DNA of 50,672 nucleotides from an uncultured Collinsella sp. (GCA_900552995.1 USBX01000001.1:1-50672), one strand, 5' to 3'. Shown: positions 1 through 33,833, numbered from the stretch's first letter. Translations and numbers: made by a program. The notes: generated by a model from the sequence alone, not told the origin.

Positions 1-55
1 CGATGATTTCAATCCTGCGGCTAGCCGATGTTCTTCGCAAATAAATGAGGCTTCC
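1..55 (+). repeat. 55-bp direct repeat, copy 1
   Basis: cgatgatttc...gaggcttcc is identical to 33779-33833 and contains the 3' end of CDS 33457-33822. Confidence 0.97.
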
Positions 56-71
56 ATGGCCATGCAGCGGT

Positions 72-350
72 CTAGTACTCCTTTACGGGATGCTCCTCGC
101 CGAATCCACCGTCGATGCCGAAGCGGCACAGTCTGTCGATTGCTCGAAGATGCTCGTCAATAGCAGCTGCAATTTTGGTGTCGATCTCGCTGTCATGGTC
201 GTTGAGGCCGCGAACTGCCTCGTCGGCGGCCATAAAGGCCTTGATGGCCCGTGCGAGCTGGTTCTTAAAAGCATCAACCTCCTCAACTGCGGCAGATCGG
301 TCTGCTATCTCGCGTTCGAGTCGTTGAACGATTTCCTGTGTGTTGCTCAT
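72..350 (-). CDS. Hypothetical helical protein (92 aa)
   Basis: ORF with a GGAAAGGA RBS upstream. Confidence 0.65.
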   Translation of the reverse strand: MSNTQEIVQRLEREIADRSAAVEEVDAFKNQLARAIKAFMAADEAVRGLNDHDSEIDTKIAAAIDEHLRAIDRLCRFGIDGGFGEEHPVKEY

Positions 351-612
351 GCTATTCCTTTCCCTCGGGTGTTTTACCTAATATATCGCCCTGTGCGGAC
401 ACGATTCTCGCTCACGACACGGCGGTAGCAAATATCACAAAGTCGCAGGTAGACGACTCAACAGGATTCGATTTACGGGGCGATTGAACCTAGGGTGGTG
501 GGATGTTCGCGACACCCATTTTCTGTGTCGTAAAACGCATCTGGTGAGGTCGTTTTTTCGGCCTTGACCTGCGTGGCGGCACTTTGTGGTGCTTTGGGTG
601 TGCCCTTAAGCA

Positions 613-1077
613 GTGTTTGCATCTACCAGCGCGCGAAACATTTCGACGGTAATTCGTGAAACAAATTGCGGAACTATCGCTCCAACGGGTGCTGCTGCCG
701 CTCAACGCGAGCGGTCAGCTTGGCCCCGCAAACGGCTACTCGCCCTTCATGGCCATACAGATGGCCACCTCCTGCTGGATGCGATCGAGATCGAGCGGCA
801 GCGCAACCGGATGATGCGTCAGACGATGGGATTTCGACATGCAGTTGTTGATGCGCACAACGGAGAGCTTGTTGCCGTGATGCGCAGTCCCGATGATGCC
901 TATGACTACTGCGACTATTTTGCCACGGCTCGTCGGGACGCCACTGTTCTCGATTTGTGGCTGAGATTTAAAACATCTCGCCTGTTTCAATGCGTTTTTT
1001 GGGTTTATAACTGTTCGCTTTTTCGGTTATGTCGCAGTTCACTAGTTCATTCATTACGTTCTTCATATCGTCTGTAA
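613..1077 (+). CDS. Hypothetical protein (start uncertain; 3' end runs into a repeat array)
   Basis: ORF track only; the middle part looks protein-like. Confidence 0.3.
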   Translation: MFASTSARNISTVIRETNCGTIAPTGAAAAQRERSAWPRKRLLALHGHTDGHLLLDAIEIERQRNRMMRQTMGFRHAVVDAHNGELVAVMRSPDDAYDYCDYFATARRDATVLDLWLRFKTSRLFQCVFWVYNCSLFRLCRSSLVHSLRSSYRL

Positions 1078-1650
1078 GTCAGTTATGCTGCGGTTACACA
1101 GCTCTGTTGTTGCGTTTTGTCGTAATTCAGCAATGGCATAGCCGGAGCTCGCCCGCAAGTGTCGTACGCTGCCGTACAAAACTGCGTTTCGGCCGTCCGC
1201 GTACTGCCAAGGCTCTGCCCTAGTACCCGGCGCCTGCGGCGGTTGTTCATATCTGAACTGCGACACAGCCGAACAAAGCAATTGCGACACTACGTAACTG
1301 TGTAATTGCTGAACTACGTGATAACGACAAAACTGAAAAACGTAACTGTTGAATTGCAGAACAATGAGCTAACGCCGCGAGTGCCGGGTACTAGGGCAGA
1401 GCTCTAGCGTGCGCCGCTTGCGGCGGTACGCTGCCGGGCATTTTGTACGGCAGCGTACGACTCTTGCGGACAGATTTCAGGGCCGAATAGTCCGATGTTC
1501 AATAGTTCTGTTATTACATGGTTACATAGTGCGGCTATTCCGCTTTGTCGTTATTGCGTTATGTCGCATTGTCGATATTGCGTAGTTCGGTTTTTCACTT
1601 TTTACGCCGTTCACTTATTCATTTGTTACATAGTGCTGCTATTCCGTGGC
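1010..1650. repeat. Three degenerate 8-bp-period arrays (middle one inverted) separated by long inverted repeats
   Basis: Units such as gttattgc/gttatgtc/gcattgtc/gatattgc; IR arms 1161-1181/1441-1461 and 1212-1231/1383-1402. Confidence 0.8.
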
Positions 1651-2187
1651 GTCACTTTTATGCCCACCGCGTGCGTATTCGACGGTGTGGGCAGCGTCTC
1701 CGAACACCTCGACTGCTGCCGCCACGAATTGCGGTGTGGTGCGCCTCGGGATATAGAAAGTTTTGTTACCGAACACGATTGCGATCCAGGCGTTACGGTA
1801 GATGAATTGATATGCCGCCTCTCTTGAGCGCTTACCGCAGCATTCCTCTGCAATCTCGTCGATCTGCCAGAGATGACCGAAGCCGACGATATATTCGGCG
1901 ATGTACGCGCTCGTCTTGATTCGTACGCGCCGCGGGCGGCGGTATGGAGCATAGCTGCTTTTCCCGGGGTCCGCTTTAACGGGCACGGAATAGACCTCGG
2001 CTCGAGCCTTTTCGGCGACCACGCGCCGCGCATCATCGAGGCTATAACGCTTGCACAGGCGCTCGCCGTCGTCGGTCGAGCACTTCACGGTGATTGACTT
2101 GATATGCGGCGCCAGATACTTGTACATCCATGCTCGCGACGCGCCGAACTCCCACCGCAGATCTTCAATACTCAAGAACTCATCCAT
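1639..2187 (-). CDS. Putative DNA-binding protein with Xis/MerR-like HTH segments
   Basis: FLSIEDLRWEFGASRAWMYKY and LWQIDEIAEECCGKRSREAAYQFI resemble excisionase-type HTHs; ATG at 2187 after GAGG. Confidence 0.5.
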   Translation of the reverse strand: MDEFLSIEDLRWEFGASRAWMYKYLAPHIKSITVKCSTDDGERLCKRYSLDDARRVVAEKARAEVYSVPVKADPGKSSYAPYRRPRRVRIKTSAYIAEYIVGFGHLWQIDEIAEECCGKRSREAAYQFIYRNAWIAIVFGNKTFYIPRRTTPQFVAAAVEVFGDAAHTVEYARGGHKSDATE

Positions 2188-2347
2188 CTTCTGACCTCGA
2201 TTTTCTGCCGATAAACGAGAAATCCCGCAAGAGACGCATACTTGTACCCCCATCGTAAATGTGTGTACAAATCTGCCGCCGACCCGGGCGGTTCGGCGCT
2301 TGCCAGGGCTCCGCCCTTGGACCGGGGAAGGATACTCGCGCGCCTTG

Positions 2348-2463
2348 TTATTACGATAACGGACAAGGGGGAAAAGGAGCCAGTTCTCAAATTATTACGA
2401 TAAAAGACACAGATACGGCGGCGTGCGCGGTGGTGCCAACGGGAGATTATTACGATAACGGAC
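2348..2463. repeat. Three TTATTACGATAA boxes (res-site/operator-like)
   Basis: Copies start at 2348, 2392 and 2447; quasi-palindromic TTAT-TACG-ATAA. Confidence 0.6.
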
Positions 2464-2663
2464 GCAGCGGCAAACCATGAATCGCGCCCCTGAGACGGTG
2501 CAAAATGGCCTTGTGAGGCCATTTTGCACGCCAGCTTCGTTCAACGTCAGACATTCAAGATGTCAGACGTTGAACCTGCGTCAAAGACGCAGCTGGGGCT
2601 GCTAGTTGCCTACAATCGCTCGCGTTACTCGCTTGTCCCACGCGTAGATGTCCGACAGTGCCG

Positions 2664-3680
2664 TCAGACATTGTCAAGCCAATGCTTCACAGGGATTTTT
2701 ACAGAATTCGTATCATTCTCGCTGCCAACCCTCTTGTACATCAAACCCTTAAAGTTCATGAAGGAGCAGAAGCATGTATGTTGATGTATAGGACTCGATC
2801 CTATACAAAGATATCGGTATATCTCCATTGCAAGCGCAGTTCCCACGAGACTGTTCGTAAAACAAATTGATCCCTTTGGCACGGGCATGTGGACTATGTT
2901 TTCTTCAGCTTGTTGGAGGAAAGAGAGATAGGATTTCATGTCGTTCTTCTTTTCGAGAATAGGCCCAATTTCCCCATCAGCTACTCCAACAGCACAAAAT
3001 GCACAGGGAATGTCCTTTTCTATACATGCTTCAAGAACTATTGACCTGGGATTGACCCCTTCCCCACAGTCTGCAGCGCAAACAAGCATTGAAGTCCTCG
3101 AAGGAACGCAACGCATGAGATCTTCGGCAGAGCGGACGTAAGACGCAACTGGATTAAGCGAAAGATCCGGATAGCGATTGACGAGTGTTTTGGAAACTGC
3201 CTCTACTTTTGCTTCTCCTATTTCGTCGGGACCAACAAGAAACTGACGATTTACGTTTGACCTCTCAACTCGATCCCCGTCGATTAATGTAAAATGCCGA
3301 ACTCCAGCAGCAGCCAAATGCTCCACCACCACCTGCCCTATGCCGCCCATACCAACGATGGCAAGATGAACGGCACCGATTTGCTTAAGTAACGTCAGCG
3401 GAGCGTCGGAATAATAAGACAAAAAGCGAGCTGTCCTCGAGCGGGGTGATTCCAGCTCGTATTCTTCAGTTTCTAGAAAACCAAGTTCGTTGAGCCTTAG
3501 CAAGAATCGTTGCTCGCGAGATTCAAGGCTCGTCTCATCTATCATATTTTGTTTGGCGAGCTGTTCAAAAAGATTCGTACTCAAATCAGAGATTTTGACC
3601 CTCACTCGCGATTTTAATCCTTGCAATATAAGTTCGTTGGAATCTCTCCTGATATAAGCACTATCGTTCCAATAGAACAT
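2664..3680 (-). CDS. ThiF/MccB/PaaA-family adenylyltransferase with N-terminal RRE-like domain
   Basis: VGMGGIG, IDGDRVERSNVNRQ and GEAKV motifs; N-terminal ~70 aa ending LLRLNELGFLE looks like a wHTH/RRE. Confidence 0.9.
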   Translation of the reverse strand: MFYWNDSAYIRRDSNELILQGLKSRVRVKISDLSTNLFEQLAKQNMIDETSLESREQRFLLRLNELGFLETEEYELESPRSRTARFLSYYSDAPLTLLKQIGAVHLAIVGMGGIGQVVVEHLAAAGVRHFTLIDGDRVERSNVNRQFLVGPDEIGEAKVEAVSKTLVNRYPDLSLNPVASYVRSAEDLMRCVPSRTSMLVCAADCGEGVNPRSIVLEACIEKDIPCAFCAVGVADGEIGPILEKKNDMKSYLSFLQQAEENIVHMPVPKGSICFTNSLVGTALAMEIYRYLCIGSSPIHQHTCFCSFMNFKGLMYKRVGSENDTNSVKIPVKHWLDNV

Positions 3681-4902
3681 TTAATATCCTTTCCCTCAAG
3701 CCTTCTTCTGGAAAAGTGTTTCGCATGAAGAAGGCGCTGGAGAGTCGTCCGATCGGCAGAAAACACGCAGCCTCGTCAAACAGTTCGACGGCTCTCTCGT
3801 TAAACTCCTGGCGCGAAATCATGCCAGAAAAATACCTGCTCAAAACCGATAAATACTTTTGGAGACGCATTCGGTTGCCCAAGCCCGTCAGTAGTGCGAG
3901 TTGATAGTAGATAAAAATAGGGTCATTGAAAGTATTCGGAATTAAAAGCAGGTGCACATCCGCCTGATCCGATTGAGGAGAGAAATAATCACTCGACATG
4001 AGCTTTGGATAATACCTGCCTGACGATGATAATTGAAGCGCTATAAGTTTTACAATCTTTTTATTGGGGTAGTATTTGTCGCATGAAATTGATAATTTCG
4101 CAGTTATCTCTCTTTGTTCATCGGATTTATTCACGCCGTAATCGAAGGAGGGGTCTTTCAGTTTCGGCGACAGAAGTCTTCTGATTGCCTCTGTGTCAAC
4201 GAGAGAGAGGATGTTCCTACGTCCTTCTTCGTCAGCGAAATAGGGAGAGTGCTTGTTTGAAAAAACGATAAAAGCCTCTATGCCAGATAATCCATGGTGC
4301 AGCCGCGCGCTCTTGCAATAGCGCTCAATTAATAAGGGCATGTTTGTATTACAGCTTGCCATGGTTCTTCCGAGAAGAAAACACAAGACGTCAATCCATC
4401 TATTCTCGATGCGCTTTATCGTCATAGTCTGAGTGCACGCAGCGCTGCTCAGTTTGACTTCCTGCCTTCCGATTCGCGTAACAGAAAAATCATTGACACA
4501 AAAATAGTGAGAAGAGAGGAGATGTAAAAATGGTCCCACCCTTCCTCCGGTCCGGAATGCAATGGACAGCGACTTTGCATGATTGCTTAGCGAATAGCAG
4601 TGACCATCAATTACATCTATTCTCAAAAAGAAAGTCTTTAGAAAGCCGCTGCAATTATGATGGACGTAGTCAAGCTTCCTCCCCAACTCGACAATATGCT
4701 CATTATCATGTCGACTTGTAAACCTAATCGTCCTGTCATCATATTCAACTTCGAAAAAAGGGGAATGAGGGCATCCCGATGCATCGAGTATTACTGGAAC
4801 CCCGGCGATACGCTGAATGATTTGTGACGAATAGTCATGTCCATCAAGAAGGCTCGACGCTTCGGGCAGCTCGTCAATCGATATATCAATTCTTGGAGAC
4901 AT
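3661..4902 (-). CDS. Hypothetical 413-aa protein in the RiPP-like operon
   Basis: Long ORF overlapping both neighbours; no motif recognised. Confidence 0.8.
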   Translation of the reverse strand: MSPRIDISIDELPEASSLLDGHDYSSQIIQRIAGVPVILDASGCPHSPFFEVEYDDRTIRFTSRHDNEHIVELGRKLDYVHHNCSGFLKTFFLRIDVIDGHCYSLSNHAKSLSIAFRTGGRVGPFLHLLSSHYFCVNDFSVTRIGRQEVKLSSAACTQTMTIKRIENRWIDVLCFLLGRTMASCNTNMPLLIERYCKSARLHHGLSGIEAFIVFSNKHSPYFADEEGRRNILSLVDTEAIRRLLSPKLKDPSFDYGVNKSDEQREITAKLSISCDKYYPNKKIVKLIALQLSSSGRYYPKLMSSDYFSPQSDQADVHLLLIPNTFNDPIFIYYQLALLTGLGNRMRLQKYLSVLSRYFSGMISRQEFNERAVELFDEAACFLPIGRLSSAFFMRNTFPEEGLRERILNVLLER

Positions 4903-6085
4903 GTATTCCTACCATTTTTAAAGAAACAACGGCGGTAATTGCTATCGCGATTGCGCCAATAACACCGAGCGCTATCTGAATGGGATATAACCCCAACACA
5001 TATCCAAATATGGAGAAAAACATTGCAGAAAAGAGAGCCCTTACCAGAGACGCGACGGAAAGGACCGTCGCGCGGAGATCGTCCGCTATCGCGTCTTGGA
5101 TTAAGTTTTCCGAAGTGATGTACACCACTTCTGGGAGAAAACAAAGCACCATGCTAAGGCCAAACAAACACAGCGGATTTGAAGCGAACCACGGAAGAAT
5201 CATGAAAAGACCGGCCTCGATTAGCATCGAGCCGAGCATGGTATTTCTTTTCCCGAAACGCGATGAGAAGAAATCTGCTGCAATGTAGGCCGTCGCATTT
5301 ACTGCATAGGATGCACCGAAAAAGATTCCTATTATGGAGACGGGAGCATCAAATGCGTCGAATACCAACTGATTCAAGTTGTAATAACTCCCATAGAATC
5401 CATCGAGCATGCTTGTGCCGATTAGAAGAAGCAACACCGCAAAAGCGGATTCTCCAATGCACCAGGTTTCGCGTCTGAAGACCTTGGCTACGTCAAACCT
5501 TTCCTCCCCAGAGTTTTTGGAATGGGTCGTTTCCATTCTCTCAATGGGATACAGAAGGAAAAGCTGCAGGAGATAGAAAACGGAAACGCATACGTAGAGG
5601 GCACTCCAAGATACTTGGGCAATGAATGATCCAAGTACGATTGCCACTCCCGTCGCGATTGATTGCGCGGCAAGCAGCCGAGCGTTGATGGTGAGGAAGC
5701 GCTCTCCTTGACCGGCATTTCGGGCAATTTCATATAAAAGTGCTTGTTCGGATCCCGATTGAAGGGAGTAGGCGAGTGCCTCAACAAGGGAAAGCGCGAC
5801 GAGAAAGGGGCCTGAGAGCAACAGCATGCCAGCCGTATGGAAGAAAAGCAGCAGCACGCCCACTTGAATCGAGAACTTCTTTCCAAAGAAATCGCCTATC
5901 AGCCCTGTTGGCAGCTCGAGGACGACCGTTGCAATGTTAAACAGGGCTTGATAAAGCGCGATTTCCGTGACAGACATTCCTTTCTCCGCAAGGAAAAGTA
6001 GAAACACTCCCCGATTTAAAACAAATCCCGCGAGAACGAAAAAGGCGGAATAGATGTGCAGCTGCGCAGTGGCATTCTTATTCAT
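4886..6085 (-). CDS. MFS transporter (putative exporter/immunity)
   Basis: About 12 hydrophobic segments; ELPTGLIGDFFGKK MFS motif; ATGA overlap with the rSAM stop. Confidence 0.92.
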   Translation of the reverse strand: MNKNATAQLHIYSAFFVLAGFVLNRGVFLLFLAEKGMSVTEIALYQALFNIATVVLELPTGLIGDFFGKKFSIQVGVLLLFFHTAGMLLLSGPFLVALSLVEALAYSLQSGSEQALLYEIARNAGQGERFLTINARLLAAQSIATGVAIVLGSFIAQVSWSALYVCVSVFYLLQLFLLYPIERMETTHSKNSGEERFDVAKVFRRETWCIGESAFAVLLLLIGTSMLDGFYGSYYNLNQLVFDAFDAPVSIIGIFFGASYAVNATAYIAADFFSSRFGKRNTMLGSMLIEAGLFMILPWFASNPLCLFGLSMVLCFLPEVVYITSENLIQDAIADDLRATVLSVASLVRALFSAMFFSIFGYVLGLYPIQIALGVIGAIAIAITAVVSLKMVGIHVSKN

Positions 6086-7746
6086 TTGGCACTCCTAACG
6101 ACTATTTTTGTCGGGGTGCTCGCCACTGATTCGAAGCCTGAAATGTTCATAGTCTCAATGAAGAGCTGATAAAGCTTTTGAACAGGGTATCGATAGAATA
6201 GGACATCCTGCGCTCTTTCTTCTCGACGAACTATTGCCAGCCGGTCGATTTCGAAACAAGAAACCGCATAATACACACCAGCTTGATCTAGAGTTGCCGT
6301 ATAGCTTTCTGCAACGGCAAATGCATCACGATCGCGACACATTTCAAAAATATCTTCAATGCTTCTACCATCTCGATGAATCATAAGGTAGGTTGCGAAT
6401 TTAAAATGGTTTATCAAATCAAAATACGTATCGGCACGCGCGAGCACGTCAAGAATGTCGTAATTTTCATTTCTGACTGTGTACAGATGATTGAAATGAA
6501 GAGGTGACAGGCTGTTTGGGTCAATTCCGGCAGCAAGTAAATCTAAGTAATACTGAGATTCTTTTACGATGATATAATCCTCTTTATTCACCCCTTGAGC
6601 AACATCAGTAAGAGGCTCTGGGCTCATATAGGAAAAGTCAACGTTTGACATAAAACTGGTCGACGCGACTTCTTGAGCAAGGGCAAGGGTGTCGAGTACT
6701 TCGGAATATGTTTCTTCTGGAAAACCGATGATAAAATTGGTTTCGAATCTCATGCCAGAGGAAATGATGGATTTTACGGTAGGAATTACTTTTTTAAGAT
6801 TCAAGTTTTTCCGGCAGATTCGCTGTATTCTTTGCGAGCCAGTTTCCAAGCCAACAAATACAGAGATACATCCGGTTGCCTTAAGTAGGCCAATGATCTC
6901 GGGAGTTATCGTATCGATTCGTCCCTCACAGTTGTATTTGAAATCATAATTCATTGCATATTTTTTGACTGCAAATTCAAAGAAGTACTTGTGCGATGCT
7001 AAGAAGTTATCATGATTATAGTTAATTGAAGAAAGAGCGCCGGTTTTTGCCATGCAATCGTAGACACGCTGCGAGGTTTCGAGCAGTTTGTCGACATTAA
7101 GAAATCGCGCTTTCTGACCGAGAAGCACTCTGGATGAGCAATAGTAGCAATTAAACGGGCAACCTCTACCTGCCTCAATGTTGACCACGTTCATGCCGTA
7201 TGAATTGGAGTAGTCGAGTTCCGGAAGGTTGTTAATGTCGTATTCAATCAACTCGCATAATCCAGAATCCCCGGTTTTAGAAATCGAATTTTTAGGTAAA
7301 TCGCCCTGAGCGCCGCAAGCAATATATTCGAGTAGAAGCGGGAGGGTTTCTTCCCCATCAAAGATCGATAGAAAGTCAACCTCGGGACAATCCTGAAAAA
7401 CCATTTCTCGAAGTGAAGTGATCTGGGGACCACCAAATATGATAACCGATTCGGGATGCGCCCGTTTAATAATCTTCGCTATCATGATGCCCCAGATATA
7501 AGAGGCGTTCATGATCGAAACACCAAAAACATGGGAGTCGATTGCTTTTATTTCGTCGGAGAACCACCGATAGATTTCTTTTGAAAAAGTCTTTTCTTCT
7601 TCGAGGAACTTACGCTGAAAGTCAATAACGTGAGTTGAAAATCCCGCTGCTTCAGAAACGGCCCTTAGATTCAAGATGGCCAGATTATCAACAAGGGTCT
7701 TCCTGTAGTGATTCACCGGATTGATCAGAGTGAAATCAACCTTCAA
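6082..7746 (-). CDS. Cobalamin (B12)-binding radical SAM enzyme
   Basis: N-terminal B12-binding domain (IIFGGPQIT), RGCPFNCYYC CxxxCxxC, GLETGS and FIIGFPEET motifs; TTG start with GAAAGGAG RBS. Confidence 0.93.
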   Translation of the reverse strand: MKVDFTLINPVNHYRKTLVDNLAILNLRAVSEAAGFSTHVIDFQRKFLEEEKTFSKEIYRWFSDEIKAIDSHVFGVSIMNASYIWGIMIAKIIKRAHPESVIIFGGPQITSLREMVFQDCPEVDFLSIFDGEETLPLLLEYIACGAQGDLPKNSISKTGDSGLCELIEYDINNLPELDYSNSYGMNVVNIEAGRGCPFNCYYCSSRVLLGQKARFLNVDKLLETSQRVYDCMAKTGALSSINYNHDNFLASHKYFFEFAVKKYAMNYDFKYNCEGRIDTITPEIIGLLKATGCISVFVGLETGSQRIQRICRKNLNLKKVIPTVKSIISSGMRFETNFIIGFPEETYSEVLDTLALAQEVASTSFMSNVDFSYMSPEPLTDVAQGVNKEDYIIVKESQYYLDLLAAGIDPNSLSPLHFNHLYTVRNENYDILDVLARADTYFDLINHFKFATYLMIHRDGRSIEDIFEMCRDRDAFAVAESYTATLDQAGVYYAVSCFEIDRLAIVRREERAQDVLFYRYPVQKLYQLFIETMNISGFESVASTPTKIVVRSAK

Positions 7747-7775
7747 CTTGAGCTCCTTTCTTTCGGGCGAATAGG

Positions 7776-7807
7776 AATCGCCTCCGTCACATTAAACGGA
7801 GGCGATT
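7776..7807 (-). terminator. Stem-loop between the precursor and rSAM genes (stabiliser/attenuator)
   Basis: Perfect 12-bp arms aatcgcctccgt/acggaggcgatt with an 8-nt loop. Confidence 0.7.
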
Positions 7808-7820
7808 GTGTTATCAGACC

Positions 7821-7940
7821 TTAGCAGCGGCGCTGTATAACCTGATCAACATCAATGCCGAAGTCCAGAAGTTCTTCAACAGTGATCTCGATGTCGGAAG
7901 CCGATTTATCGCTGGCCAGCTCGATTTCCTCTTTCTCCAT
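7821..7940 (-). CDS. Putative RiPP precursor peptide MEKEEIELASDKSASDIEITVEELLDFGIDVDQVIQRRC (39 aa)
   Basis: Manual translation; AAGGAGGTG RBS; acidic leader-like body with a basic/Cys C-terminus; first gene of the operon. Confidence 0.85.
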   Translation of the reverse strand: MEKEEIELASDKSASDIEITVEELLDFGIDVDQVIQRRC

Positions 7941-8596
7941 TTTCGTCACCTCCTTTTCATGTATGAGTTAAAAAACTAGTGGCTTTCTGGAAACAGCCAG
8001 GATCAATGCTAAACGATGATTTTAGATTCAACGTCGGGACCGGTTGTTTTTATGAATATGATGCCAATGCACGAACAAAAGCAGTTAGCCTTTTCAGCAC
8101 TGTTGCGGCTTATGCAATCACATGAGTCCTAGGCCCTTTCGACACCACCTGTATTGCGAATCAGCACCGCTGCCTTCCCGACTGAATATTGCCGTCAGGC
8201 ACCGCTATTAAATGCATCTCCAGGCACCCCGTTACACTCGTGCCGCCATGCGGTCGACTGAACGAGGAGGTTCAACATAGACGCGATCTGGGCCGACATG
8301 GGAGAGACCATCATGCGGCAGCGCTGCAGATGGAGCGCTAGCAATAAAAGGGCACAGGGACCAGCGTCTGCCAGATGCCCGCACACGATAACGGCGGTGC
8401 TGTTACGCGATATTCAGCAGTGCTTAAGCTATCAGATACTCAATCACACGCATGGCAGGGGTAACAGCACGGGTGTTCCTATAGTTTTGTCAACCGGGGA
8501 ATGTCGTTCGCGAGATCGAATCGCGAAATGCTGACGCCAGGCCTTTCGACCGGCGGACTCCAGCCTGTTCGGAGTGCTGTGCTTCGACTAGGTGGC

Positions 8597-8875
8597 TTAG
8601 GGCACCCTGTCCCGTATGATCGCGTAGGTGACCTTCAACCTCTTTCGCGTCAGCGCTTTGAGTGCCTTGCCGTGCGGTATGCCTCGTTCTCGGCACCTGG
8701 CGTAGTGGTCGCCTCATCTTCCCTCTGTCCGGGCAAGGCAGTTGCACGAGAATATGAGCAGGTTCTTCAGCCTTTTGTTGCCTTGGCGCGATGCCGTCAC
8801 CGAGGAGATCGAGGTCTCCGACTGGCGGTTGTGCGGCGCCAGGCCGCAGTACGACGCGAGCCTGTCGTGGCTTGA
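8597..8875 (-). pseudogene. IS110-family transposase C-terminal remnant
   Basis: SHDRLASYCGLAPHNRQSETS...SRQGNKRLKN...R*GDHY...KALKALTRKRLKV; internal TGA; N-terminal domain absent. Confidence 0.8.
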
Positions 8876-8897
8876 CTCGGCATGTTCAATCTGTTTC

Positions 8898-8989
8898 GTT
8901 AACTGAAATGCGTAAATCTGGTTAATCGAAAAAGCAAAATCTGGTTAAATGAAAACGGTAAATTTAGTTAAACGCGCTGGTAATCAATG
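8898..8989 (+). repeat. 4 x 23-bp-period degenerate repeats (GTTAA...AAATCTG)
   Basis: GTTAA at 8898, 8921, 8944 and 8967. Confidence 0.8.
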
Positions 8990-10264
8990 GTGAAGAATAT
9001 GCCAAAAAAGTACTACACTCGAATTATCGAAAATGAGCTCGACCAGATGCTAGGGATATTCGGTGCCGTTCTCATCGAAGGACCGAAATGGTGTGGAAAG
9101 ACAACCACAGCCGGGACCCGTGCGGCGTCCAGGCTCCTTCTCATGGATCCGTCGCGCAACTTCGAGAATCGTTTGCGTGCCGAGACGGACCCGGCGCTTG
9201 CCGTTTCCGGCGAGGTGCCGCGGCTGATCGACGAATGGCAGGAGGTTCCGAAACTTTGGGACGCGGCACGGTTTGAGTGCGACAACCGCGGCGGCGAGCC
9301 TGGCCAGTTCATATTTACGGGGTCGGCGACACCGCGAGACAATGAGCGGCCGATGCACAGTGGTGCTGGAAGGTTCGCTAAATTGCGCATGGATACCATG
9401 ACGCTTTTCGAACTTGGGAAATCTAGCGGTGCGGTTAAGCTGTCGAGCATTATTTCTGGCGAAAAGTTCAATGGCGCTTTCGGGTCGTTGGATTCTGCCT
9501 CGATTGCCGAGTGCGTTGTTCGCGGCGGATGGCCCGCGGCGGTCGGGCGCGATGTGCTGGCTGCGTCGGCGATGGCAAAACGTTATATCGGCATAGTTGC
9601 CGAAGAAGATTTGTCTCGTGTTGATGGCTCTCGACGCGATCCCGAAAAGGTCAAAGCTGTTATCGAATCGCTTGCGCGCAATGAATCCACTTTGGCGACA
9701 CTCAAGACGCTCGTAGCTGATCTTGGTGGAGAGGTATCGAGACAAACGGCGGCATCGTATATATCTCTTCTCGCTCGGGTCAGCTTCGTTCGCGATATTC
9801 CCGCATGGAATCCAGCAATGAGATCTCCTGTGCACTTAAGAGAATCAAAGAAGCATCATCTTGCTGACCCGTCACTGGCGGCCGCTGCGCTCGGGGCGAC
9901 TCCGGAGACCTTGCTGCTAGATTTCAAGACGCTTGGACTACTTTTTGAATCGTTGGCACTCCATGATTTGTGGGTCTATGCGCGAGCAAACGGAATGAGC
10001 CTCTACCACTATCATGATTCTCGTGATTTAGAGGTCGATGCAGTCATTGCGGCTCCTGGCGGGACCTGGATCCCAGTTGAAGTTAAGCTCAGCTCCGCTC
10101 AAATCGAAGAGGCATCTGACAATCTTGTTGCTGTCGAGGAACGTATGGTTGCCGCCGGAAACAACCCACCGGTTTCGAAAGTTGCAATCATTGGATTTGG
10201 TTCACAAGCCTATGTTACCGACCGCGGCGTCCAAGTTGTTCCGTTGGATGTGCTCGCGCCGTAA
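8987..10264 (+). CDS. AAA_14/DUF4143-type ATP-binding protein
   Basis: Walker A GPKWCGKT, IDEWQ, TGS, ADPSLA, FES, LEVD...VEVK. Confidence 0.9.
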   Translation: MVKNMPKKYYTRIIENELDQMLGIFGAVLIEGPKWCGKTTTAGTRAASRLLLMDPSRNFENRLRAETDPALAVSGEVPRLIDEWQEVPKLWDAARFECDNRGGEPGQFIFTGSATPRDNERPMHSGAGRFAKLRMDTMTLFELGKSSGAVKLSSIISGEKFNGAFGSLDSASIAECVVRGGWPAAVGRDVLAASAMAKRYIGIVAEEDLSRVDGSRRDPEKVKAVIESLARNESTLATLKTLVADLGGEVSRQTAASYISLLARVSFVRDIPAWNPAMRSPVHLRESKKHHLADPSLAAAALGATPETLLLDFKTLGLLFESLALHDLWVYARANGMSLYHYHDSRDLEVDAVIAAPGGTWIPVEVKLSSAQIEEASDNLVAVEERMVAAGNNPPVSKVAIIGFGSQAYVTDRGVQVVPLDVLAP

Positions 10265-10914
10265 TGCTGTGGGCGAAGTGAAATTAACGCCGCAGTTTTT
10301 AAATCTGGTTTCTGAGATCTAAAACGCGAAACTCAAAATATCATCAGCTTGATTTTCGGCCGATCCGAATCGCGCCCGCGCAAAAGTCAAAGCGACTCGC
10401 GCGGGCGTTTCGTTTTTCATTTCGGATTTCAAATTGATTCAAAACAAAACGGGAGTTTTGAAAATCGATAGCGACCGGAGGGAGCAATCATAGGCGGCTT
10501 GGCCGCCGCATGAAAATCGAATCGTTAATCCGAACCGTAATTCAAATCGCGTTACCTTTCGACAATCCAACAACGCTACGAGTCTCACCAAAGACTCTCC
10601 GCGTCATTGAAATGTCGAAAGCTGCCTCAACTTTTTCGCTGGCGTTACGAAAAACATTCGACAAAGTCGAAGGTTTGCGTCGCGGGCGCCGCAAACCCGC
10701 TGCGCGGTGATGCAAATACTCGGCATCCCTCGCATTCGCATCACCGCTTCGCTCTCGCTACAGCGAATCTCTAACACTCAGCATCCTTCGCGTTAAAAAT
10801 TCGCTTCCGCTCACGGTCTTCACGCAGTTACAACGCCGCGAGGCCTCTCGCTTGGAATGAGGCCTCTCATTCCACGTCTACACTGCGTTTCGCCCAATCC
10901 CCGTTCCGGAGATT

Positions 10915-10979
10915 GCAAGATGGGTGTGGGTGGCAACAAATGGGCCCATACGGGCCATTTGTTTTCCCACACATCTTGC
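10915..10979. promoter_or_regulatory. Putative oriT hairpin with MOBP-type nic-like CATCTTGC
   Basis: Imperfect inverted repeat gcaagatg...catcttgc about 150 bp upstream of mobC. Confidence 0.5.
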
Positions 10980-11128
10980 TTTACCACCTCTCACGGCGGT
11001 AAAGTTTTCGCGAGACGTTTTCAAATCGCGTCGGCGATTTTTAAGCACTCGAAAAGGAAAGCGAATCGAATAGCTGGTTTTGCACCGGAGGCCTCTCCGG
11101 TGTGCGGTTCATTTTCGAGGAGCTGTCC

Positions 11129-11653
11129 GTGAGTACGAAACGTCCGTTCACAGTCAAGGCAACGCTGAGTGAAGAAGAAAAGAAAACGCTTGTTGCGTTT
11201 TCCAAAAAGGCCCAAATGTCTGAGGCCGAACTGATTAGGTATTTCCTGCGTCCCGATGACGCGGTGACTCGCGGGGTCGATCTGACTGAAGACGAAGAGC
11301 GAACTGAGATGATTCGCATCCGGGTTTCGCCAAGTGAGAAAAAATCCATTGAGAATCGCGCTTCTGAACTCGGCGTGTCGATGTCGGCCTTCATGCGTCG
11401 CACTGCTCTTGTCGGGAGAGTCGAGAAAATCGATGTCGATCGGGCGTCGATCGACAAAATCTATCACGAGCTTTTGAAGGAAGGAACGAATCTCAATCAG
11501 CTCATGTACTTTTTGAACGCCCAAGGGCTTCCCGCGTACAACGAGAAAGCTGTTTTTCGAACACTTGAGAAGGTTTATCAAGTTGGGCGTAAGCTAGACC
11601 GTTTCATCGACGAGCTTGAAAAGCGCTATTTCGTCGGTGGTGATGTGAAGTGA
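11129..11653 (+). CDS. mobC: MobC-family relaxosome accessory protein (tandem RHH)
   Basis: IRIRVSPSEK...LGVSMSAFMRR and GTNLNQL motifs; GTG start after GAGGAG; overlaps the relaxase start. Confidence 0.85.
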   Translation: MSTKRPFTVKATLSEEEKKTLVAFSKKAQMSEAELIRYFLRPDDAVTRGVDLTEDEERTEMIRIRVSPSEKKSIENRASELGVSMSAFMRRTALVGRVEKIDVDRASIDKIYHELLKEGTNLNQLMYFLNAQGLPAYNEKAVFRTLEKVYQVGRKLDRFIDELEKRYFVGGDVK

Positions 11654-12849
11654 CTGTTATCAAACAGAAAAGAGTGTCGAGTGAGCGCTATGCAAAGAAT
11701 GTTCGTAAATACATCAACGGAAAAGATGCGATTGTGCGTGGTGGCTGGAACATCGAATGGAGCGACCACTGGTTTTCGAAAATGGATAGAACCAGAAAGG
11801 TTTTCCATCACGACAAACCGTCGAGAGCCGGAGTCAAAAACGTAATCATGCTTCATCAGATTCTCGCGTTTCTGCCCGAGGAGTGCAGCTGCAACGGAGG
11901 CAAGATGACCCCCGATGCATGTTTGGCCTACGCGGAGCAATGGCTTGCGAAGCACTATCCGCATCAACAAGTGATTCTCGCGTTGCATGAGGAAAGCGAT
12001 AAGGCGGGAAAACGCTACGCGGTCCATATGGCGATCAACCGTACCGATTTGCTGACCGGCAAACGTTGCGAGACTGGTGGGCGTCGCGGAAAATTCGAAC
12101 GCGCTTCATGGGTTCGTGAAATGGACAAGGCCTGGAATCTTACTCAACTTGAAAAAGGTAAGAGAAATTCAAAGATTCGAGATCGTCAGCCGCGCGATAT
12201 TGAAAAGGAGATTGTCGATCGGGGAGAGTACAGTTATAAAAACAATCTGCGCGAGCTGATCCATATTGCAATCGACGACTACCACCCGAAGAATATGGAG
12301 CAGTTCAAAAAATTACTTGCCTCGTGGGGCGTAGACATTTTCATCAAGAACAATCGAGTCTATGCGACAGATCTCGATATCAAAGAGGCCGGTAATCCAA
12401 AATGTACCTTCAACTTGACCCGTCTCGACGGGCGGTTCGCGTTGAAGTCGTTGCAGACGGCTTTCGGAAATAACGTGTTGGAAGCCGAGCGAGCCCTTCC
12501 ATACGAGAAACGTTGTGAGATTTACATCAAGCGTCTCAAGAAAGCATACTCGGCGTGGGTCGAGCAGGCGAAAGCGAGCAAGGGCGTCTCCTACAATTCG
12601 TTTCCTAAATTCATTGCACCGAAGTGTGATGAAGATCTGCTCGAAGATCCCGCCGTACGTGATGAGCTTCTTGCCCGGCGCGGTTACGCAAGGGAGATTC
12701 GCAACCGTTACGCCGGCGGCGTTGTCGATGCCGGCGACGACCGCGTTCGCGCCGCCGGCCAGGCGCACAGCGGTAGCGCCGTGTTGCGACAGATGGACGA
12801 TCGCGTCGTCGATCGCGGCGATTACGCTCGCGGCGACACGCCTCGCTAG
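11650..12849 (+). CDS. Relaxase/mobilization nuclease (MOBP-like)
   Basis: N-terminal Tyr (RKYI), HQILAF and LHEE...VHMAINR motifs; follows mobC. Confidence 0.88.
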   Translation: MTVIKQKRVSSERYAKNVRKYINGKDAIVRGGWNIEWSDHWFSKMDRTRKVFHHDKPSRAGVKNVIMLHQILAFLPEECSCNGGKMTPDACLAYAEQWLAKHYPHQQVILALHEESDKAGKRYAVHMAINRTDLLTGKRCETGGRRGKFERASWVREMDKAWNLTQLEKGKRNSKIRDRQPRDIEKEIVDRGEYSYKNNLRELIHIAIDDYHPKNMEQFKKLLASWGVDIFIKNNRVYATDLDIKEAGNPKCTFNLTRLDGRFALKSLQTAFGNNVLEAERALPYEKRCEIYIKRLKKAYSAWVEQAKASKGVSYNSFPKFIAPKCDEDLLEDPAVRDELLARRGYAREIRNRYAGGVVDAGDDRVRAAGQAHSGSAVLRQMDDRVVDRGDYARGDTPR

Positions 12850-12920
12850 CCTCGAACTGCCTGTCGGGGCGGAGTAAAGCGCTCATGCCCCGGTAGAGCG
12901 GTGAGGCATGAGTTACTGAG

Positions 12921-13200
12921 GTATACTATAGTTTCCGCAGGTAGAGGCATAAAAAAATGGCAACCCGCCCGCCGAAAAGACGGGCGGGCGTGATACCATC
13001 AAGATTGTGCTCGGGTGCTACCAACACCTCCGCACGGTGTAGAGGCGAGCTACCAACTCGCGTTTCTACTTGCCAGTTGTGCTAAAAACGCAAACAGCAC
13101 TCCTGGCACATCCAATGATAGCAGGGACCCGCAGGTCACGCTATGGATGACAGTTAGAAAACGCAAATGGGAGCCGGCTCGCACGGCTCCCGTTTTTTAT
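12921..13200. promoter_or_regulatory. Putative antisense-RNA/attenuator leader with two GCTACCAAC-loop hairpins
   Basis: TATACT at ~12922; hairpins in 13007-13069; terminator-like gggagccg...cggctccc-T6 at 13169-13198; opposite-strand TATCAT at 13115-13120. Confidence 0.5.
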
Positions 13201-25935: not shown

Positions 25936-26000
25936 ACCGATCTCCCTGCCCATGAAACCGGGCGTTGGACACCAGCCGATATCCAACGCCCGGCTCGCTT

Positions 26001-29000
26001 TTACATCTGCTCGCGGCGCTTCTTTTGATCGAGGAAGACGCCGGCCGCCACGAGGATGGTACCGCCGATGGCGAACGTCTCGCCGATGAGTCCCGCGCGG
26101 TCACCGGTCTGGGCGAGGCTGCCGGGCTGGGCGGTATCCGTGCCGGCGAGGTGCTTCGGGGTGTATGCCGCCTGCTGCTTTGCCGCCTCCTCTGCCTCCT
26201 GTCGTGCGATCTCATCGGAAAGCTTCTGCTCCGCTGCGATGCGGTCGGACTTCGCCAACTCGTAGGCGGCGAGTGCCGCATCATAGCCAGACTGGAGCCC
26301 GTCTACCGCGGCCTGCTTCTCGTCCAGGATTGCCTTTGCGGGCGCGATCTTGGCACGTGCCTCGACGGCGGCGGCGAAAAGCGCGTTGAGGACGTCATCC
26401 GCGTTCGCGTCATGGCCGGAAGCAATCGCCGCGTCGGCGTCGATGGAGTTCAGCTTCGCCAGCTTGGCGTCTGCCTGCGCCTTCGCCTGCTCGGCGGCGG
26501 AGACCAGGGACTCGGCGGCGGCGGTATCCGCCTTCGCGGCATCGAGGGCGGCCTTGGTGTCATTGACGGCCTTTACTGCATCCTGCTCGCGCTGCTGTGC
26601 CTCTGCGAGCTTCGCGGCAAGACCGGTGAGGATGTCGAGGTTCGACTGTGCGTCCTCGAGATCGGTCTGGGAGCCGGTAAGCCTGTCGGCGGCAACGCCG
26701 GTGTCGGCCTTTGCGGCATCGACGGCACGCTGGGCATCCGCGAGGGCGCGTGCGGTGGCGTCCGCCTTTTGCTCGGCGGCGGCGAGGACGGTCGCCTTCT
26801 CGACCTGATCGGCTACCGCCGCGTCATGGACGCTCTTTGCTGTATCGACCGCCTTCTTGGCGTCGGCGACGTCCTGGAAGAACTTCGCGAGGTCGGCGTT
26901 CGCATCGTCCACGCCCTGCTGCTTAGCAGCGGTGTCCGCCTTGGCGGAATCCAACTTAGACTGTGCGGTCATTACGGCTGCGTTGGCAGCATCAAAGGCG
27001 ACCTGCTTCTGCTGGACGGTCGACTTTGCCGTATCGACTGCCGCGTTGGCGGCATCGAGGTCCGATTTCGCCGCATCAAGCTCGGTCTGGGCATCCGTGA
27101 CGCCCTGCTGCTTGGCGGCGACATCAGCCTTGGTGGCATCGACGGCACGCTGGGCATCGGCAACACCCTGCTTTGCGGCATCGACACCTGCCTGTGCGGA
27201 ATCCACCGCGACCTGCTTCTGCTGGACGGTTGTGGCGGCGCCGGCGGCTGCCTGCTTCTTGGATGCGAGATCGGCCTTGGCTGCGTCGAGTGCGCTCTTG
27301 GCGTTCTTAAGGCCGTTGATATAGGAGGTCAGCTTCTGCTCGTACTCGTCGACGGACATGGGGTTCATGTTCCAACCGGAGCCTGCCCAACCCAGGTTTG
27401 CGGTATCGAAGCTGTCGGTCTTCCAGCCGTTCATGGTTCCCTTGCTGCAGACCGCCATGCCCATATAGCCGATTTCAGGGCTGATGACATGCAGGTAATG
27501 ACCGACGGTTGCGGGATATCCGGCAACCTTAAAATGCTGATTGACATAGGATTCAATCCCACTATGCGACTTGTAGAAGTCTGTGGCATCCTTACCGATT
27601 AGACCGGTGACGCCATAGAGCTCCTGAACCGCCTGATCGAAGAAAGCTTTTTCTTGGTCCACCCACTGCGGTTTCGGATCGGTTCCATAGTTCCATGCGA
27701 GGTTTTCGCCCGTATCAAACTGCATGGAATGCCCAAACTTGACATCGGAATAGTTCGCGTTGGCAATCGCCGCCGCAATGAGCTTGTACGTGACTTGGAG
27801 CTCAGAGAGACCGACGGACTTGCGATACTCGTTGATGGACTTCATGTACGGGATTGCCGCGAGCATGTTGTCGAGACTAGTCGCGTCGAGGCTGTTCCCC
27901 ACCTCGGTGTAGTCCTTGTATGTGCAGTTCTGGATGATCTCGATGGCTGAATCGGCACCCATGGCACGGAAGAAACCGATGGCCCCCTGCTTGAGTTGCG
28001 CGCCGGCTGAATCGAGTTTCGCCTGAGCCTCGTCGACTTTCTGCTGCGCGGCGGTCACGGCGGCGTCTGCGGTGTCCTTTGCGGTCTTGGCGTTCGCGAG
28101 CTCTACATCGGCGGCTGCCTTGGCGGACTCGGCGTCCTTGACAGCCTGCTTCGCGGCATCCAGCTTGGCGACGGCGTCTGCATTCGCCTGCTTGGCCGCA
28201 TCGAGGTCGGCGTTCGCGGCATCGAGGGCGGACTGGGCGGCGTTCACACCGGATTCGGCATCGGCCGCGGCCTGCTGCTTCGCGGAGAGGGACGCCTGGG
28301 CATCATTCAGCTCGGTCTGCGCCGTTGCTGCGGCGGATTGCGCCTGCTCGAGCTCGGACTCGCACTGGGACTGTGTCGCTTGTGCGGCAGCGAGGGCTGC
28401 CTCCGCGTCCGCGACCTTCTGTTTTGCCGCATCGTACTCCGGGCCGCTCGCGCCTGCCTCCGCTGCGGCGAGGTCTGCTTTCGCCTTCTCGTAGGCGGCG
28501 CTGGCGGCTGCGGCCTTCGCATCCGCCGCGTCCTTGTTCTGCTGGGCTGCGGCGAGGACGGCATCGGCGGAATCCTTTGCAGACTGGGCCGCAACCAGCT
28601 TGGACTGGGCATCGGCAAGCGTCGCGTTGGCGTTGGCGAGATTGGCCTGTGCCCTGTCCACGGCAGCCTGGGCGTCGCGCACGGCCTGCTCGGCGGCACT
28701 GATTGCCTCCGGGGTGGCGCTTACGGCATCGGCCTTGGCTTTATCGAGGGCGTCCTTTGCAGACTGGGCCGCCTTGATGGCGGACTGGTACGCTTCGTCC
28801 TTCTCGGATGCATCCGCCTTGGCGTCTGCGAGACCCGCCTTCGCCTGCTCGAGGTCCTTGCCGGCGGCATCGGCGGCGTCCTTGCCCTCCGCGACCTGAC
28901 GGGCGTACTCGTCCATTGCCGCTCGGTCGGCTGCCGTACCGGCATTGACTGCAGAATCGTAGGATGCCTTGGCCTGGTCGCGGGCGGAAGCCGCCTCGTT

Positions 29001-29859: not shown

Positions 29860-29897
29860 ACAGTATAATTTCAAGTGGATGATTGGAGGGAAAGGCG

Positions 29898-33456: not shown

Positions 33457-33822
33457 ATGGACGTCATATATGACGGAGATGACTGGGTCGATCATTATAC
33501 TTGGCGCCTGGTCGGCTCGGATGACAATGGGGATGTGGTGTTTGATGGACTATGTCCAAAGCATCTCCATCCTTTTGTCTCGTCGTTAATTGAGAGTTCC
33601 GCTCGTGTTGCCCCCTACAGCTCGGCATCGCTTCATGATACGGACGTTTTGAAGACCATAAGGGAATCAATTGACGAGGGCACGATGAGCGGCCCGCTGT
33701 TTTCTCGGCTTGTGGGGCTAGATGAGATTGGCTCGAAACGACTGCTTGCGGGCGAAAAGGTGGAACTCACTTATCGGTCGATGATTTCAATCCTGCGGCT
33801 AGCCGATGTTCTTCGCAAATAA
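33457..33822 (+). CDS. Hypothetical protein
   Basis: ATG 14 nt after the upstream stop; ends inside the 55-bp repeat. Confidence 0.65.
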   Translation: MDVIYDGDDWVDHYTWRLVGSDDNGDVVFDGLCPKHLHPFVSSLIESSARVAPYSSASLHDTDVLKTIRESIDEGTMSGPLFSRLVGLDEIGSKRLLAGEKVELTYRSMISILRLADVLRK

Positions 33823-33833
33823 ATGAGGCTTCC
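33779..33833 (+). repeat. 55-bp direct repeat, copy 2 / element-chromosome junction
   Basis: Identical to 1-55. Confidence 0.97.

Follow-up and report, generated by a model that had tools for sequence, protein, structure and literature searches.

A conserved operon, very probably for a ThiF-type RiPP, on a chromosomal island of Collinsella

The window described here is a 50,672-nucleotide stretch of DNA from an uncultured Collinsella sp. (GCA_900552995.1, USBX01000001.1:1-50672) and is an entire contig of a 1.5-Mb, 68%-complete genome bin. At positions 2664-7940 it carries a five-gene operon, all on the minus strand, for a 39-residue peptide, a B12-binding radical S-adenosylmethionine (SAM) enzyme, a major facilitator superfamily (MFS) transporter, a 413-residue protein and a ThiF-like enzyme (Table 1). 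This is very probably an operon for a peptide synthesized by the ribosome and modified after translation (RiPP), of the ThiF-like-adenylyltransferase (TLAT) kind, and it is a real, conserved and apparently undescribed variant of such systems. Overlaps of 4, 17 and 20 nt join the last four genes, and the radical SAM gene has its own ribosome-binding site. Pfam recognizes Radical_SAM (5.5e-16), B12-binding (2.1e-8), MFS_1 (1.9e-21) and ThiF (1.4e-32) domains and gives no family above threshold for the peptide or the 413-residue protein, for which NCBIfam likewise has no family. An earlier note made from the sequence had described co-oriented, overlapping and AT-rich genes headed by a 39-residue peptide gene, and every particular is borne out by the coordinates and the base composition. 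The GC content of 2664-7940 is 0.450 (45.0%) against 0.599 (59.9%) for the 1.50-Mb genome, and a single one of 190 genome windows of 5277 bases lies at or below 0.46 (minimum 0.452).

Table 1. Features of the operon and of the island segment that carries it, in window coordinates
Feature	Position	Strand	Size or content	Basis
Peptide gene	7824-7940, stop 7821-7823	-	39 aa	ORF and Shine-Dalgarno site
Hairpin	7776-7807	-	13-bp perfect stem	Lies between the peptide stop codon and the radical SAM ribosome-binding site
B12-binding radical SAM gene	6082-7746	-	554 aa	Pfam B12-binding and Radical_SAM
MFS transporter gene	4886-6085	-	399 aa	Pfam MFS_1
Solute-binding-protein-like ("orphan") gene	3661-4902	-	413 aa	Predicted solute-binding protein family-5 fold
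ThiF gene	2664-3680	-	338 aa	Pfam ThiF
Island segment moving as one unit in other Collinsella	2671-10922		AAA_14/DUF4143 gene (8987-10264) and RiPP operon	blastn of 23 Collinsella loci

The peptide gene is preceded by the Shine-Dalgarno sequence AAAGGAGG, 7 nt upstream of its ATG, and encodes MEKEEIELASDKSASDIEITVEELLDFGIDVDQVIQRRC. An acidic leader with the motif EELLD (residues 22-26) is followed by a core whose end contains Asp30, Gln33 and Arg37-Arg38-Cys39. The gene is present in all 18 of the Collinsella loci that reach this region; the other five of the 23 Collinsella loci are on contigs whose first base falls within or next to the MFS gene. Five alleles occur, and their differences are confined to codons 3-11 or 28, codons 12-27 and 29-39 being constant. 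As the earlier note had stated, the peptide has neither the C-terminal Asn of microcin C nor the EEN core of pantocin, and Pfam finds no YcaO, LanB or SPASM family in the five operon proteins.

Related clusters were sought with the family of the 413-residue protein. A search of one genome per species confirmed 24 loci among 149 pattern matches, namely the 23 of Collinsella and one of Pseudolactococcus chungangensis (locus L024), and a metagenome scan confirmed three further loci of this Lactococcus type among 372 pattern matches. The order in L024 and L026 is an Rgg regulator, a peptide gene, a hairpin, the B12-binding radical SAM gene (565 aa in L026), the MFS gene, a gene for a 401-residue homologue of the 413-residue protein, and the ThiF gene. 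Identities between the window and L026 are 32% for the radical SAM enzyme (full length, E 4e-100), 34% for the MFS protein, 27% for the 413-residue protein and 33% for ThiF. The Lactococcus-type peptide, MVNKNEVNSYKYEEELLDDVDLVQMSSRRC, stands at the same operon position as the Collinsella one and shares with it 12 invariant columns (M1, K12, E22-D26, D30, Q33, R37, R38 and C39). Conservation between Collinsella (Actinomycetota) and Pseudolactococcus (Bacillota) thus extends to the gene set, the gene order and the precursor. Because the peptide gene is kept in 18 of 18 loci with few alleles and has a Lactococcus-type homologue at the same place, it is more than a chance open reading frame. The earlier note had named the lack of a conserved peptide in homologous clusters as an outcome that would speak against a RiPP system; the search was made, and the peptide is there.

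Two more distant clusters from Streptococcaceae share part of this arrangement. In L060 (cluster at 2900-6438) a two-component system is followed by a 15-aa gene, MVVTKDEARELTRRC, with a hairpin, and then by ThiF, a 423-aa protein and an MFS gene. Its 423-aa protein has a faint SBP_bac_5 signal (Pfam E 0.003) and aligns with the family of the 413-residue protein in hhalign with 72% probability (E 3e-5). L061 (7760-13721) consists of MIVEEKETRESTRRTVL, ThiF, a 452-aa protein, a 565-aa protein of no known family, an MFS gene and a SAM methyltransferase. The 452-aa protein shares DDLPE and DYFPN motifs with the family; hhalign gives only 13% probability, and the kinship rests on motifs and position. 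The precursors of L060 (15 aa) and L061 (17 aa) have E-x-R-E-x-T-R-R in common. From these cases, ThiF, the 413-residue-type protein and the MFS pump are a recurring module, to which the B12-binding radical SAM enzyme is an add-on. In the peptides of the window (D30/C39), L024 (D21/C30) and L060 (D6/C15) an Asp precedes the terminal Cys at a distance of exactly nine residues; the L061 precursor has neither the terminal Cys nor an Asp at -9. Gln at -6 is confined, among the four precursors compared, to the two radical SAM-containing clusters.

The Lactococcus ThiF protein was also searched against 401 Streptococcaceae genomes. ThiF-like matches occur in 44 of them, and an orthologue only in the source genome. 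At 29 Streptococcaceae ThiF loci no further neighbour related to the 413-residue protein was found within 1.5-kb flanks by an HMMER profile of the 413-residue protein or by phmmer with the L060 and L061 proteins, which says little, as HMMER also misses the L060 protein; no GRC-ending peptide was seen beside these 29 loci. The last gene of the cluster in L024 and L026 (10140-11477) encodes a 445-aa protein in which an ABC-type ATPase fragment is fused to a GNAT acetyltransferase; by tblastn it has no counterpart in the window.

The hairpin that follows the peptide gene may have a role in expression. The 86-nt region 7745-7830 (minus strand) folds at -28.7 kcal/mol (z -3.37), with 1 of 200 shuffles equally good. 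Because the hairpin has no U-tract, it is probably an attenuator or stabiliser that sets the peptide:enzyme ratio. A hairpin with a T-run is found at the same place in L026. Rfam, run on window 1-13000, gave nothing at E<=0.1, so no cobalamin riboswitch was found there, and a promoter and terminator scan gave results no better than shuffles. The cluster has been seen as Logan contigs in three RNA-library runs (one sample) and in four runs of unrecorded kind (second study); contigs of up to 41 kb in the RNA libraries and a flat per-contig depth do not show transcription.

The ThiF domain of the ThiF-like enzyme spans residues 96-307 (Pfam, 113 bits) and follows an N-terminal extension of about 95 residues. 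The best PDB match is MccB, at 1.5e-14 with the single sequence and 2.1e-26 with a six-sequence profile, and next in the profile search come E1 enzymes and PaaA (1.1e-14). The motif GMGGIG (GxGGxG) lies at 110-115, and D134, R145, K158 and D204 are invariant in six relatives, down to 30% identity. The invariant residues align with the MccB motifs, the nucleotide- and Mg-binding residues being intact. Because the Gly-rich loop and these four residues are invariant, the protein has the look of a working adenylyltransferase rather than of a docking scaffold. Another ThiF protein, P0011, is 32% identical, and its cluster mate is named Coprococcus comes WP_347006937.1.

The N-terminal extension is a probable RiPP recognition element (RRE), though one only partly shown. 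The profile alignment with MccB begins at profile position 54 and MccB residue 62, and that with PaaA begins at PaaA residue 83, in each case inside the N-terminal peptide-binding domain. The sole Pfam signal in this part is a faint match to ThcOx (residues 8-51, E 0.087).

The second enzyme of the operon contains an N-terminal B12-binding domain at residues 15-138 (PF02310, 34.5 bits against a cut-off of 32.1) and a Radical_SAM domain at 191-356 (PF04055, 59.6 bits). The CxxxCxxC motif reads CPFNCYYC at 196-203, and a C-terminal SPASM cysteine cluster is absent. With a B12-binding domain ahead of such a core, the protein falls into class B (cobalamin-dependent) of the radical SAM enzymes. Its best NCBIfam match is ApyD (NF050148; 1.1e-49, model positions 25-390 of 645), with 169.4 bits where the cut-off is 750, followed by PhpK and then by the MCR Gln C-methyltransferase; these are families of C- and P-methyltransferases acting on peptides or phosphinates. 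The PDB matches are 9ccb, AprD4, CysS and TokK. The C-terminal stretch of about 170 residues has no assignable family in Pfam or in the ESM Atlas (best score 0.78, uninformative). The ApyD preprint reports β-methylation of the penultimate Tyr of the precursor (bioRxiv 10.1101/2023.10.30.564719). To judge from its relatives, methylation is the likeliest function of the window enzyme, though other functions are possible.

Interrupted forms of the radical SAM gene occur at two loci. In L017 (4254-5884) it is split by an insertion of about 1.6 kb, probably an insertion sequence, with a 450-aa frame on the other strand. In the type-strain assembly of Pseudolactococcus chungangensis (L024, 5071-6773) it lies in pieces of 191 and 271 aa, and the metagenome loci L026 and L027 have one 565-aa frame.

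The 413-residue protein had been regarded as an orphan, a description that its predicted structure no longer allows. AlphaFold2 gave a mean confidence (pLDDT) of 34.8 from the single sequence; this was replaced by a model from a 13-row alignment, with pLDDT 82.6 and a predicted TM-score (pTM) of 0.77. The top Foldseek match of the latter is 5za4 (E 1.7e-16, TM 0.71); 174 matches were obtained at E<=1e-3, and all 50 of those listed are solute-binding proteins (SBPs). VIA-align gave Z 24.2 with a root-mean-square deviation of 3.6 A over 378 residues for 6lu3, and Z 21-24 over about 380 residues across SBP_bac_5 structures. In the ESM Atlas, 26 of 30 matches belong to a single set, which carries SBP_bac_5. 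By sequence, the gathering score of PF00496 is not reached by the window protein, by the L024 orthologue (24.7 bits against 32.4) or by the L060 relative (17.1 bits). Word-index searches returned only relatives of more than 85% identity and a profile search added no distant ones; a full HMMER scan yielded about a dozen distant relatives at 20-29% identity. Viral contigs contained no relative of this family or of the ThiF protein P0011.

Like OppA, DppA and NikA, the modelled protein has the SBP family-5 fold over its whole chain, but it is about 90 residues shorter, shares 8-16% identity with SBP_bac_5 proteins, and is coupled inside a biosynthetic operon in which Pfam finds no ABC permease gene. 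Its N-terminus, MSPRIDISIDELPE..., reaches a maximum hydropathy of 1.3 over 15 residues and shows neither signal peptide nor lipobox. Because there is no signal peptide and the gene is translationally coupled to its neighbours, the protein is read as a cytoplasmic one with an OppA/DppA-type fold. It is presumed to be a peptide-binding partner. A predicted complex with the precursor lends weak support, the score being 0.50 and that of the best of three controls 0.01. The mark applied is reached by 58 of 80 solved complexes and by 2 of 110 mismatched pairs, and scores of 0.60 or less among the passes come from only seven of the 80 solved complexes and from both passing mismatches. The runs share at least 47% of contacts, with a partner pLDDT of at least 55. 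The pass may only mirror the likeness to solved OppA-peptide complexes. No paper linking SBP_bac_5 to RiPP maturation was found in the literature searched. On an ENA contig, protein P0003 (494 aa) is 98% identical to the SBP-like protein until residue 374 and continues with unrelated sequence that has an ABC_tran Pfam match; this is apparently a rearranged or degraded locus.

The MFS protein is presumed to serve as exporter and to protect the producer. Its gene and the SBP-like gene were each searched in a sample of 400 Collinsella genomes, drawn in both cases evenly across the genus. An MFS orthologue (E<=1e-100) occurs in 124 genomes of its sample (about 31%), mostly without the rest of the cluster, and 101 of those among the matches listed are full length without a stop codon. 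Eight genomes (about 2%), that of the window included, have a complete or almost complete SBP-like gene, and in 101 others only a scar is left, consisting of the first 83 or fewer codons and mostly carrying a stop codon. At three loci (L063, 6705-8149; L064, 7896-9340; L065, 2126-3974) an intact MFS gene is accompanied by stubs of the radical SAM and SBP-like genes. In L063 and L064, which are chromosome-sized, complete-looking contigs, the remnant corresponds exactly to window 4755-6200, with an intact 399-aa MFS frame and identical breakpoints, and it sits in high-GC surroundings unrelated to the window. The ratio of nonsynonymous to synonymous substitution rates (dN/dS) between lone MFS copies is 0.13-0.16, not above that between full-cluster copies. 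These data suggest that the pump gives resistance and that the product is antagonistic, likely against other Collinsella. An antagonist is favoured over a pure signal because the exporter is kept, intact and under purifying selection, after loss of the pathway.

The operon does not lie on a mobilizable plasmid, as had been proposed. Window positions from about 34 to 50.7 kb hold ordinary chromosomal genes, which encode a PfkB kinase, an aldose 1-epimerase, an amidohydrolase, a SIS protein, phosphotransferase system (PTS) components IIC and IID of mannose type, a GntR regulator, isopropylmalate dehydrogenase and a 3-hydroxyisobutyrate-type dehydrogenase. In another Collinsella bin (L016) the island is part of a 2.37-Mb contig, and PLSDB has no match to the window DNA, to the SBP-like protein or to a related ThiF. 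The island is 93.8-99.8% identical in DNA to contigs of Collinsella aerofaciens and Collinsella sp. The left 34 kb do look mobile: genes for NikA and a MobA/VirD2 relaxase lie at 11.1-12.8 kb, that for a serine recombinase is at 14.7 kb and that for a ParA-like ATPase at 23 kb. A direct repeat of 55 bases, identical in both copies, is present at 1-55 and 33779-33833, and in six Collinsella loci (L009, L010, L011, L014, L015 and L020) base 1 of the window adjoins base 33833; therefore the first 33.8 kb behave as a circularly permutable or integrating unit. The repeat may be a point at which the assembler broke the contig. The left 34 kb are best read as an integrated mobilizable element or a recombination-prone island, and not as a plasmid.

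Within this region the RiPP operon is a smaller low-GC insert, clearly imported by horizontal transfer from a low-GC donor and integrated in the chromosome. The position of the insert (2671-10922) relative to the backbone differs in other genomes. Two paralogous AAA_14/DUF4143 ATPase genes occur in the window, at 8987-10264 and 29883-31163, with about 69% DNA identity across 369 bases. In genomes of the L016 type the RiPP island separates two sequences that adjoin each other in the window (31164 and 31648) and stands next to the second of these paralogues, which suggests that recombination between the paralogues moves the island. Elsewhere in the left part, the GC content rises to 68% at 26001-29351 (minus strand) and 25965-27602 (plus strand), where both strands carry long frames, among them one of 1116 aa without a Pfam family.

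Among characterised systems, two reviews (PMC12250964, PMC12596934) name five ThiF chemistries in RiPPs, those of microcin C, pantocin A, GRC, enterofaecin and indolylamide. In their account of the GRC type from Streptococcus pneumoniae, the ThiF-like, RRE-bearing GrcB forms a Glu35-Cys39 thiolactone on the 39-residue GrcA, which ends in GRC, and the clusters, which are under Rgg control, encode a transporter, a standalone RRE and two radical SAM enzymes as well (PMC12250964, PMC12596934). The operon described here belongs with the TLAT RiPPs, a conserved short precursor gene standing beside the enzyme genes, and the GRC type (GrcA-F of Streptococcus pneumoniae and Streptococcus oralis) is its closest characterised case. 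The two share a 39-residue precursor with C-terminal Arg-Cys, a ThiF-like enzyme (whose N-terminal part is in the window a probable peptide-binding domain), tailoring by radical SAM chemistry and a transporter, and Rgg control in so far as it is found upstream of the Lactococcus relative.

The differences from the GRC type are considerable. The window peptide ends in RRC and has Ile35 at -4, whereas GrcA, as the reviews describe it, has GRC, Glu at -4, Thr at -7 and His at -5; the invariant Asp at -9 would give a ring of 10 residues and not of 5. One cobalamin-domain radical SAM enzyme stands here in place of GrcC (an epimerase) and GrcD/GrcE (a dehydrogenase with a standalone RRE), an SBP-fold protein is added, and the host is an actinobacterium without Rgg in the window. 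The C-terminal Cys on a precursor of about 39 residues is thus shared, but the GRC ending with Glu at -4, the two radical SAM enzymes with a standalone RRE, and Rgg/SHP control are not. The cluster shares the GRC logic and is not a GRC member. In the accessible text of PMC13361665, "RRC" is not among the 16 named subfamilies of streptococcal radical SAM RiPPs (RaS-RiPPs). Clusters termed "GRC-like" are drawn in Figure 8 of PMC12250964 for Lactococcus sp. RyT2, Macrococcoides and Clostridium tagluense, and the Lactococcus-type relative may already be among them.

With microcin C7 the operon has in common MccB as the nearest solved relative of its ThiF enzyme, a short precursor, and an MFS pump, which in that system is MccC and serves export and self-protection. 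It differs in lacking the C-terminal Asn, and hence the succinimide/phosphoramidate route, as well as MccD, MccE and MccF, and in having a 39-aa precursor with a leader where microcin C7 has a heptapeptide, together with radical SAM and SBP-like proteins. Pantocin A is similar in that the ThiF-like PaaA activates side-chain carboxylates of a precursor of about 30 aa to give a small product, with a resistance transporter, but the window has no Glu-Glu-Asn core and no PaaB-type Fe(II)/2-oxoglutarate oxygenase, and Cys is the likely nucleophile. ApyD resembles the window enzyme in its N-terminal B12-binding domain and radical SAM core and methylates the residue next to the precursor C-terminus; in published descriptions it has an RRE, which was not detected in the window enzyme, and its multinuclear non-heme iron oxidase (MNIO) and P450 partners are absent here. 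No paper pairing ThiF with a cobalamin-dependent radical SAM enzyme was found, and a search combining Collinsella aerofaciens, RiPP and radical SAM returned nothing relevant. The statement in the earlier note that the cluster matches no recognised class was therefore too strong, as the cluster is of the TLAT kind with GRC closest. The RiPP reading in that note is supported by the conserved precursor, the MccB/PaaA-like ThiF, the cobalamin-domain radical SAM enzyme and the MFS pump.

In the pathway that best accounts for these genes, the peptide would dock through its leader (EELLD region) on the ThiF N-terminal domain, in the cleft of the SBP-like protein, or on both. The ThiF enzyme with ATP would adenylate a carboxylate of the core, the favoured one being the side chain of the invariant Asp30. 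The Cys39 thiol would capture the adenylate and close a thiolactone ring of 10 residues (D-V-D-Q-V-I-Q-R-R-C), in the way that GrcB joins Glu35 to Cys39. The B12-binding radical SAM enzyme would add at least one C-methyl group to an unactivated core carbon, for which Gln33, Arg37 and Arg38 are candidates. A host protease would take off the leader, and the MFS pump would export the small product and protect the producer. Taken whole, as a RiPP operon with an Asp30-Cys39 thiolactone, C-methylation, MFS export and a product directed against Collinsella, this explanation has in our estimate about an even chance of being correct. A bolder form of it appears on balance unlikely. In this form the cytoplasmic SBP fold would be a new precursor-binding partner replacing the usual RRE for the cobalamin-dependent radical SAM and ThiF enzymes, the product a C-methylated 10-residue reverse thiolactone, and the setting an arms race within the species, in which about a third of the lineages keep nothing but the exporter, as an immunity gene.

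Several points weigh against the thiolactone explanation. The site of activation by ThiF is inferred. According to the 2025 reviews, three of the five characterised RiPP ThiF enzymes (MccB, EnfB and IndF) activate the C-terminal α-carboxylate and not a side chain, and PMC12250964 and PMC12596934 disagree on which carboxylate of GrcA is adenylated. GrcA and GrcB could be compared by review description only, and the window peptide has Ile at -4, where GrcA has Glu. Asp at -9 could be a matter of chance in three acid-rich peptides. A B12-binding domain is no proof of methyl transfer, given that AprD4, a dehydratase, is among the nearest solved relatives, and the score of the radical SAM enzyme is far below the ApyD cut-off. 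The operon encodes no protease, which leaves removal of the leader without an explanation. A signal and a weapon are equally compatible with the Rgg neighbour in Lactococcus, and retention of the lone pumps could have a cause that has nothing to do with the peptide.

The first of these points leads to an alternative for the same operon, in which ThiF would adenylate the α-carboxylate of Cys39. Capture would then be by a backbone amide (giving an imide), an Arg guanidine or an external amine, or nucleotide transfer would occur as in microcin C, and the Cys thiol would stay free or be used by the radical SAM enzyme. Besides the kinship with MccB and the action of EnfB and IndF on the C-terminal carboxylate, it is in keeping with the last residue and the two preceding Arg being the strictest-conserved part of the precursor, and with the L061-type relative, which keeps Arg-Arg without Cys, so that Arg-Arg may be the key feature. 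The lack of a C-terminal Asn and of MccD/E-like genes speaks against an analogue of microcin C, however, and Asp at -9 and the Cys are co-present or co-absent in the four precursors. In addition, the only characterised ThiF RiPP with a C-terminal Cys in the account of PMC12596934 uses that Cys as nucleophile. We consider activation at the α-carboxylate possible but rather doubtful.

The product might also be a quorum-sensing or other signal peptide, of the kind of a reverse-orientation thiolactone resembling autoinducing peptides (AIPs), with the MFS protein as an exporter only. A signalling role has been suggested in reviews for GRC-type products (PMC12250964), Rgg is encoded directly upstream of the Lactococcus-type cluster, and a two-component system stands beside the L060 cluster. 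In the Collinsella island, by contrast, tblastn with the L026 Rgg finds no homologue in the window, and there is no regulator among the island proteins scanned with Pfam. The lone exporter, retained by purifying selection in roughly 100 of 400 genomes, is easier to reconcile with resistance than with export of a signal. Both classical ThiF RiPPs with MFS pumps, microcin C and pantocin A, are antibiotics, which also counts against a signal. A purely signalling product is a reading to be held tentatively, and an unlikely one.

It is improbable that the peptide is only a scaffold whose C-terminal Cys is tailored, cleaved off as a small metabolite of the pearlin/3-thiaglutamate type and exported by the MFS pump. 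Such a scheme would suit the small-molecule substrates usual for MFS pumps, the conserved chemistry at the extreme C-terminus and the lack of a leader protease, but the operon has no PEARL/LanB-like, MNIO or peptidase gene, and the conservation reaches 10 residues upstream (Asp30, Gln33), which a one-residue product would not need. Most improbable of all is a system that does not work as a RiPP pathway, be it a decaying island or one with a non-peptide substrate and an incidental small reading frame: degraded copies exist (the split radical SAM gene in L017 and the broken one in L024, the truncated and fused SBP-like gene in P0003, and the many Collinsella genomes that keep the pump only), but the window and most of the 18 full loci have all five frames unbroken, the peptide gene is conserved above its surroundings, and a cross-phylum homologue occupies the same position with the same hairpin.

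ThiF-like enzymes constitute an emerging RiPP superfamily in which only five chemistries are characterised, and this cluster adds a branch that pairs ThiF with a cobalamin-dependent radical SAM enzyme. It also contains an SBP fold, for which no role in RiPP maturation has been described. The short precursor, the compact operon and the simple mass shifts to be expected make the chemistry directly testable. Collinsella is a prevalent genus of the human gut, and an Rgg-controlled cousin of the cluster exists in a dairy lactococcus. From the many intact lone exporters comes the testable prediction of a product that acts, with a narrow spectrum, as an antagonist between strains of Collinsella.

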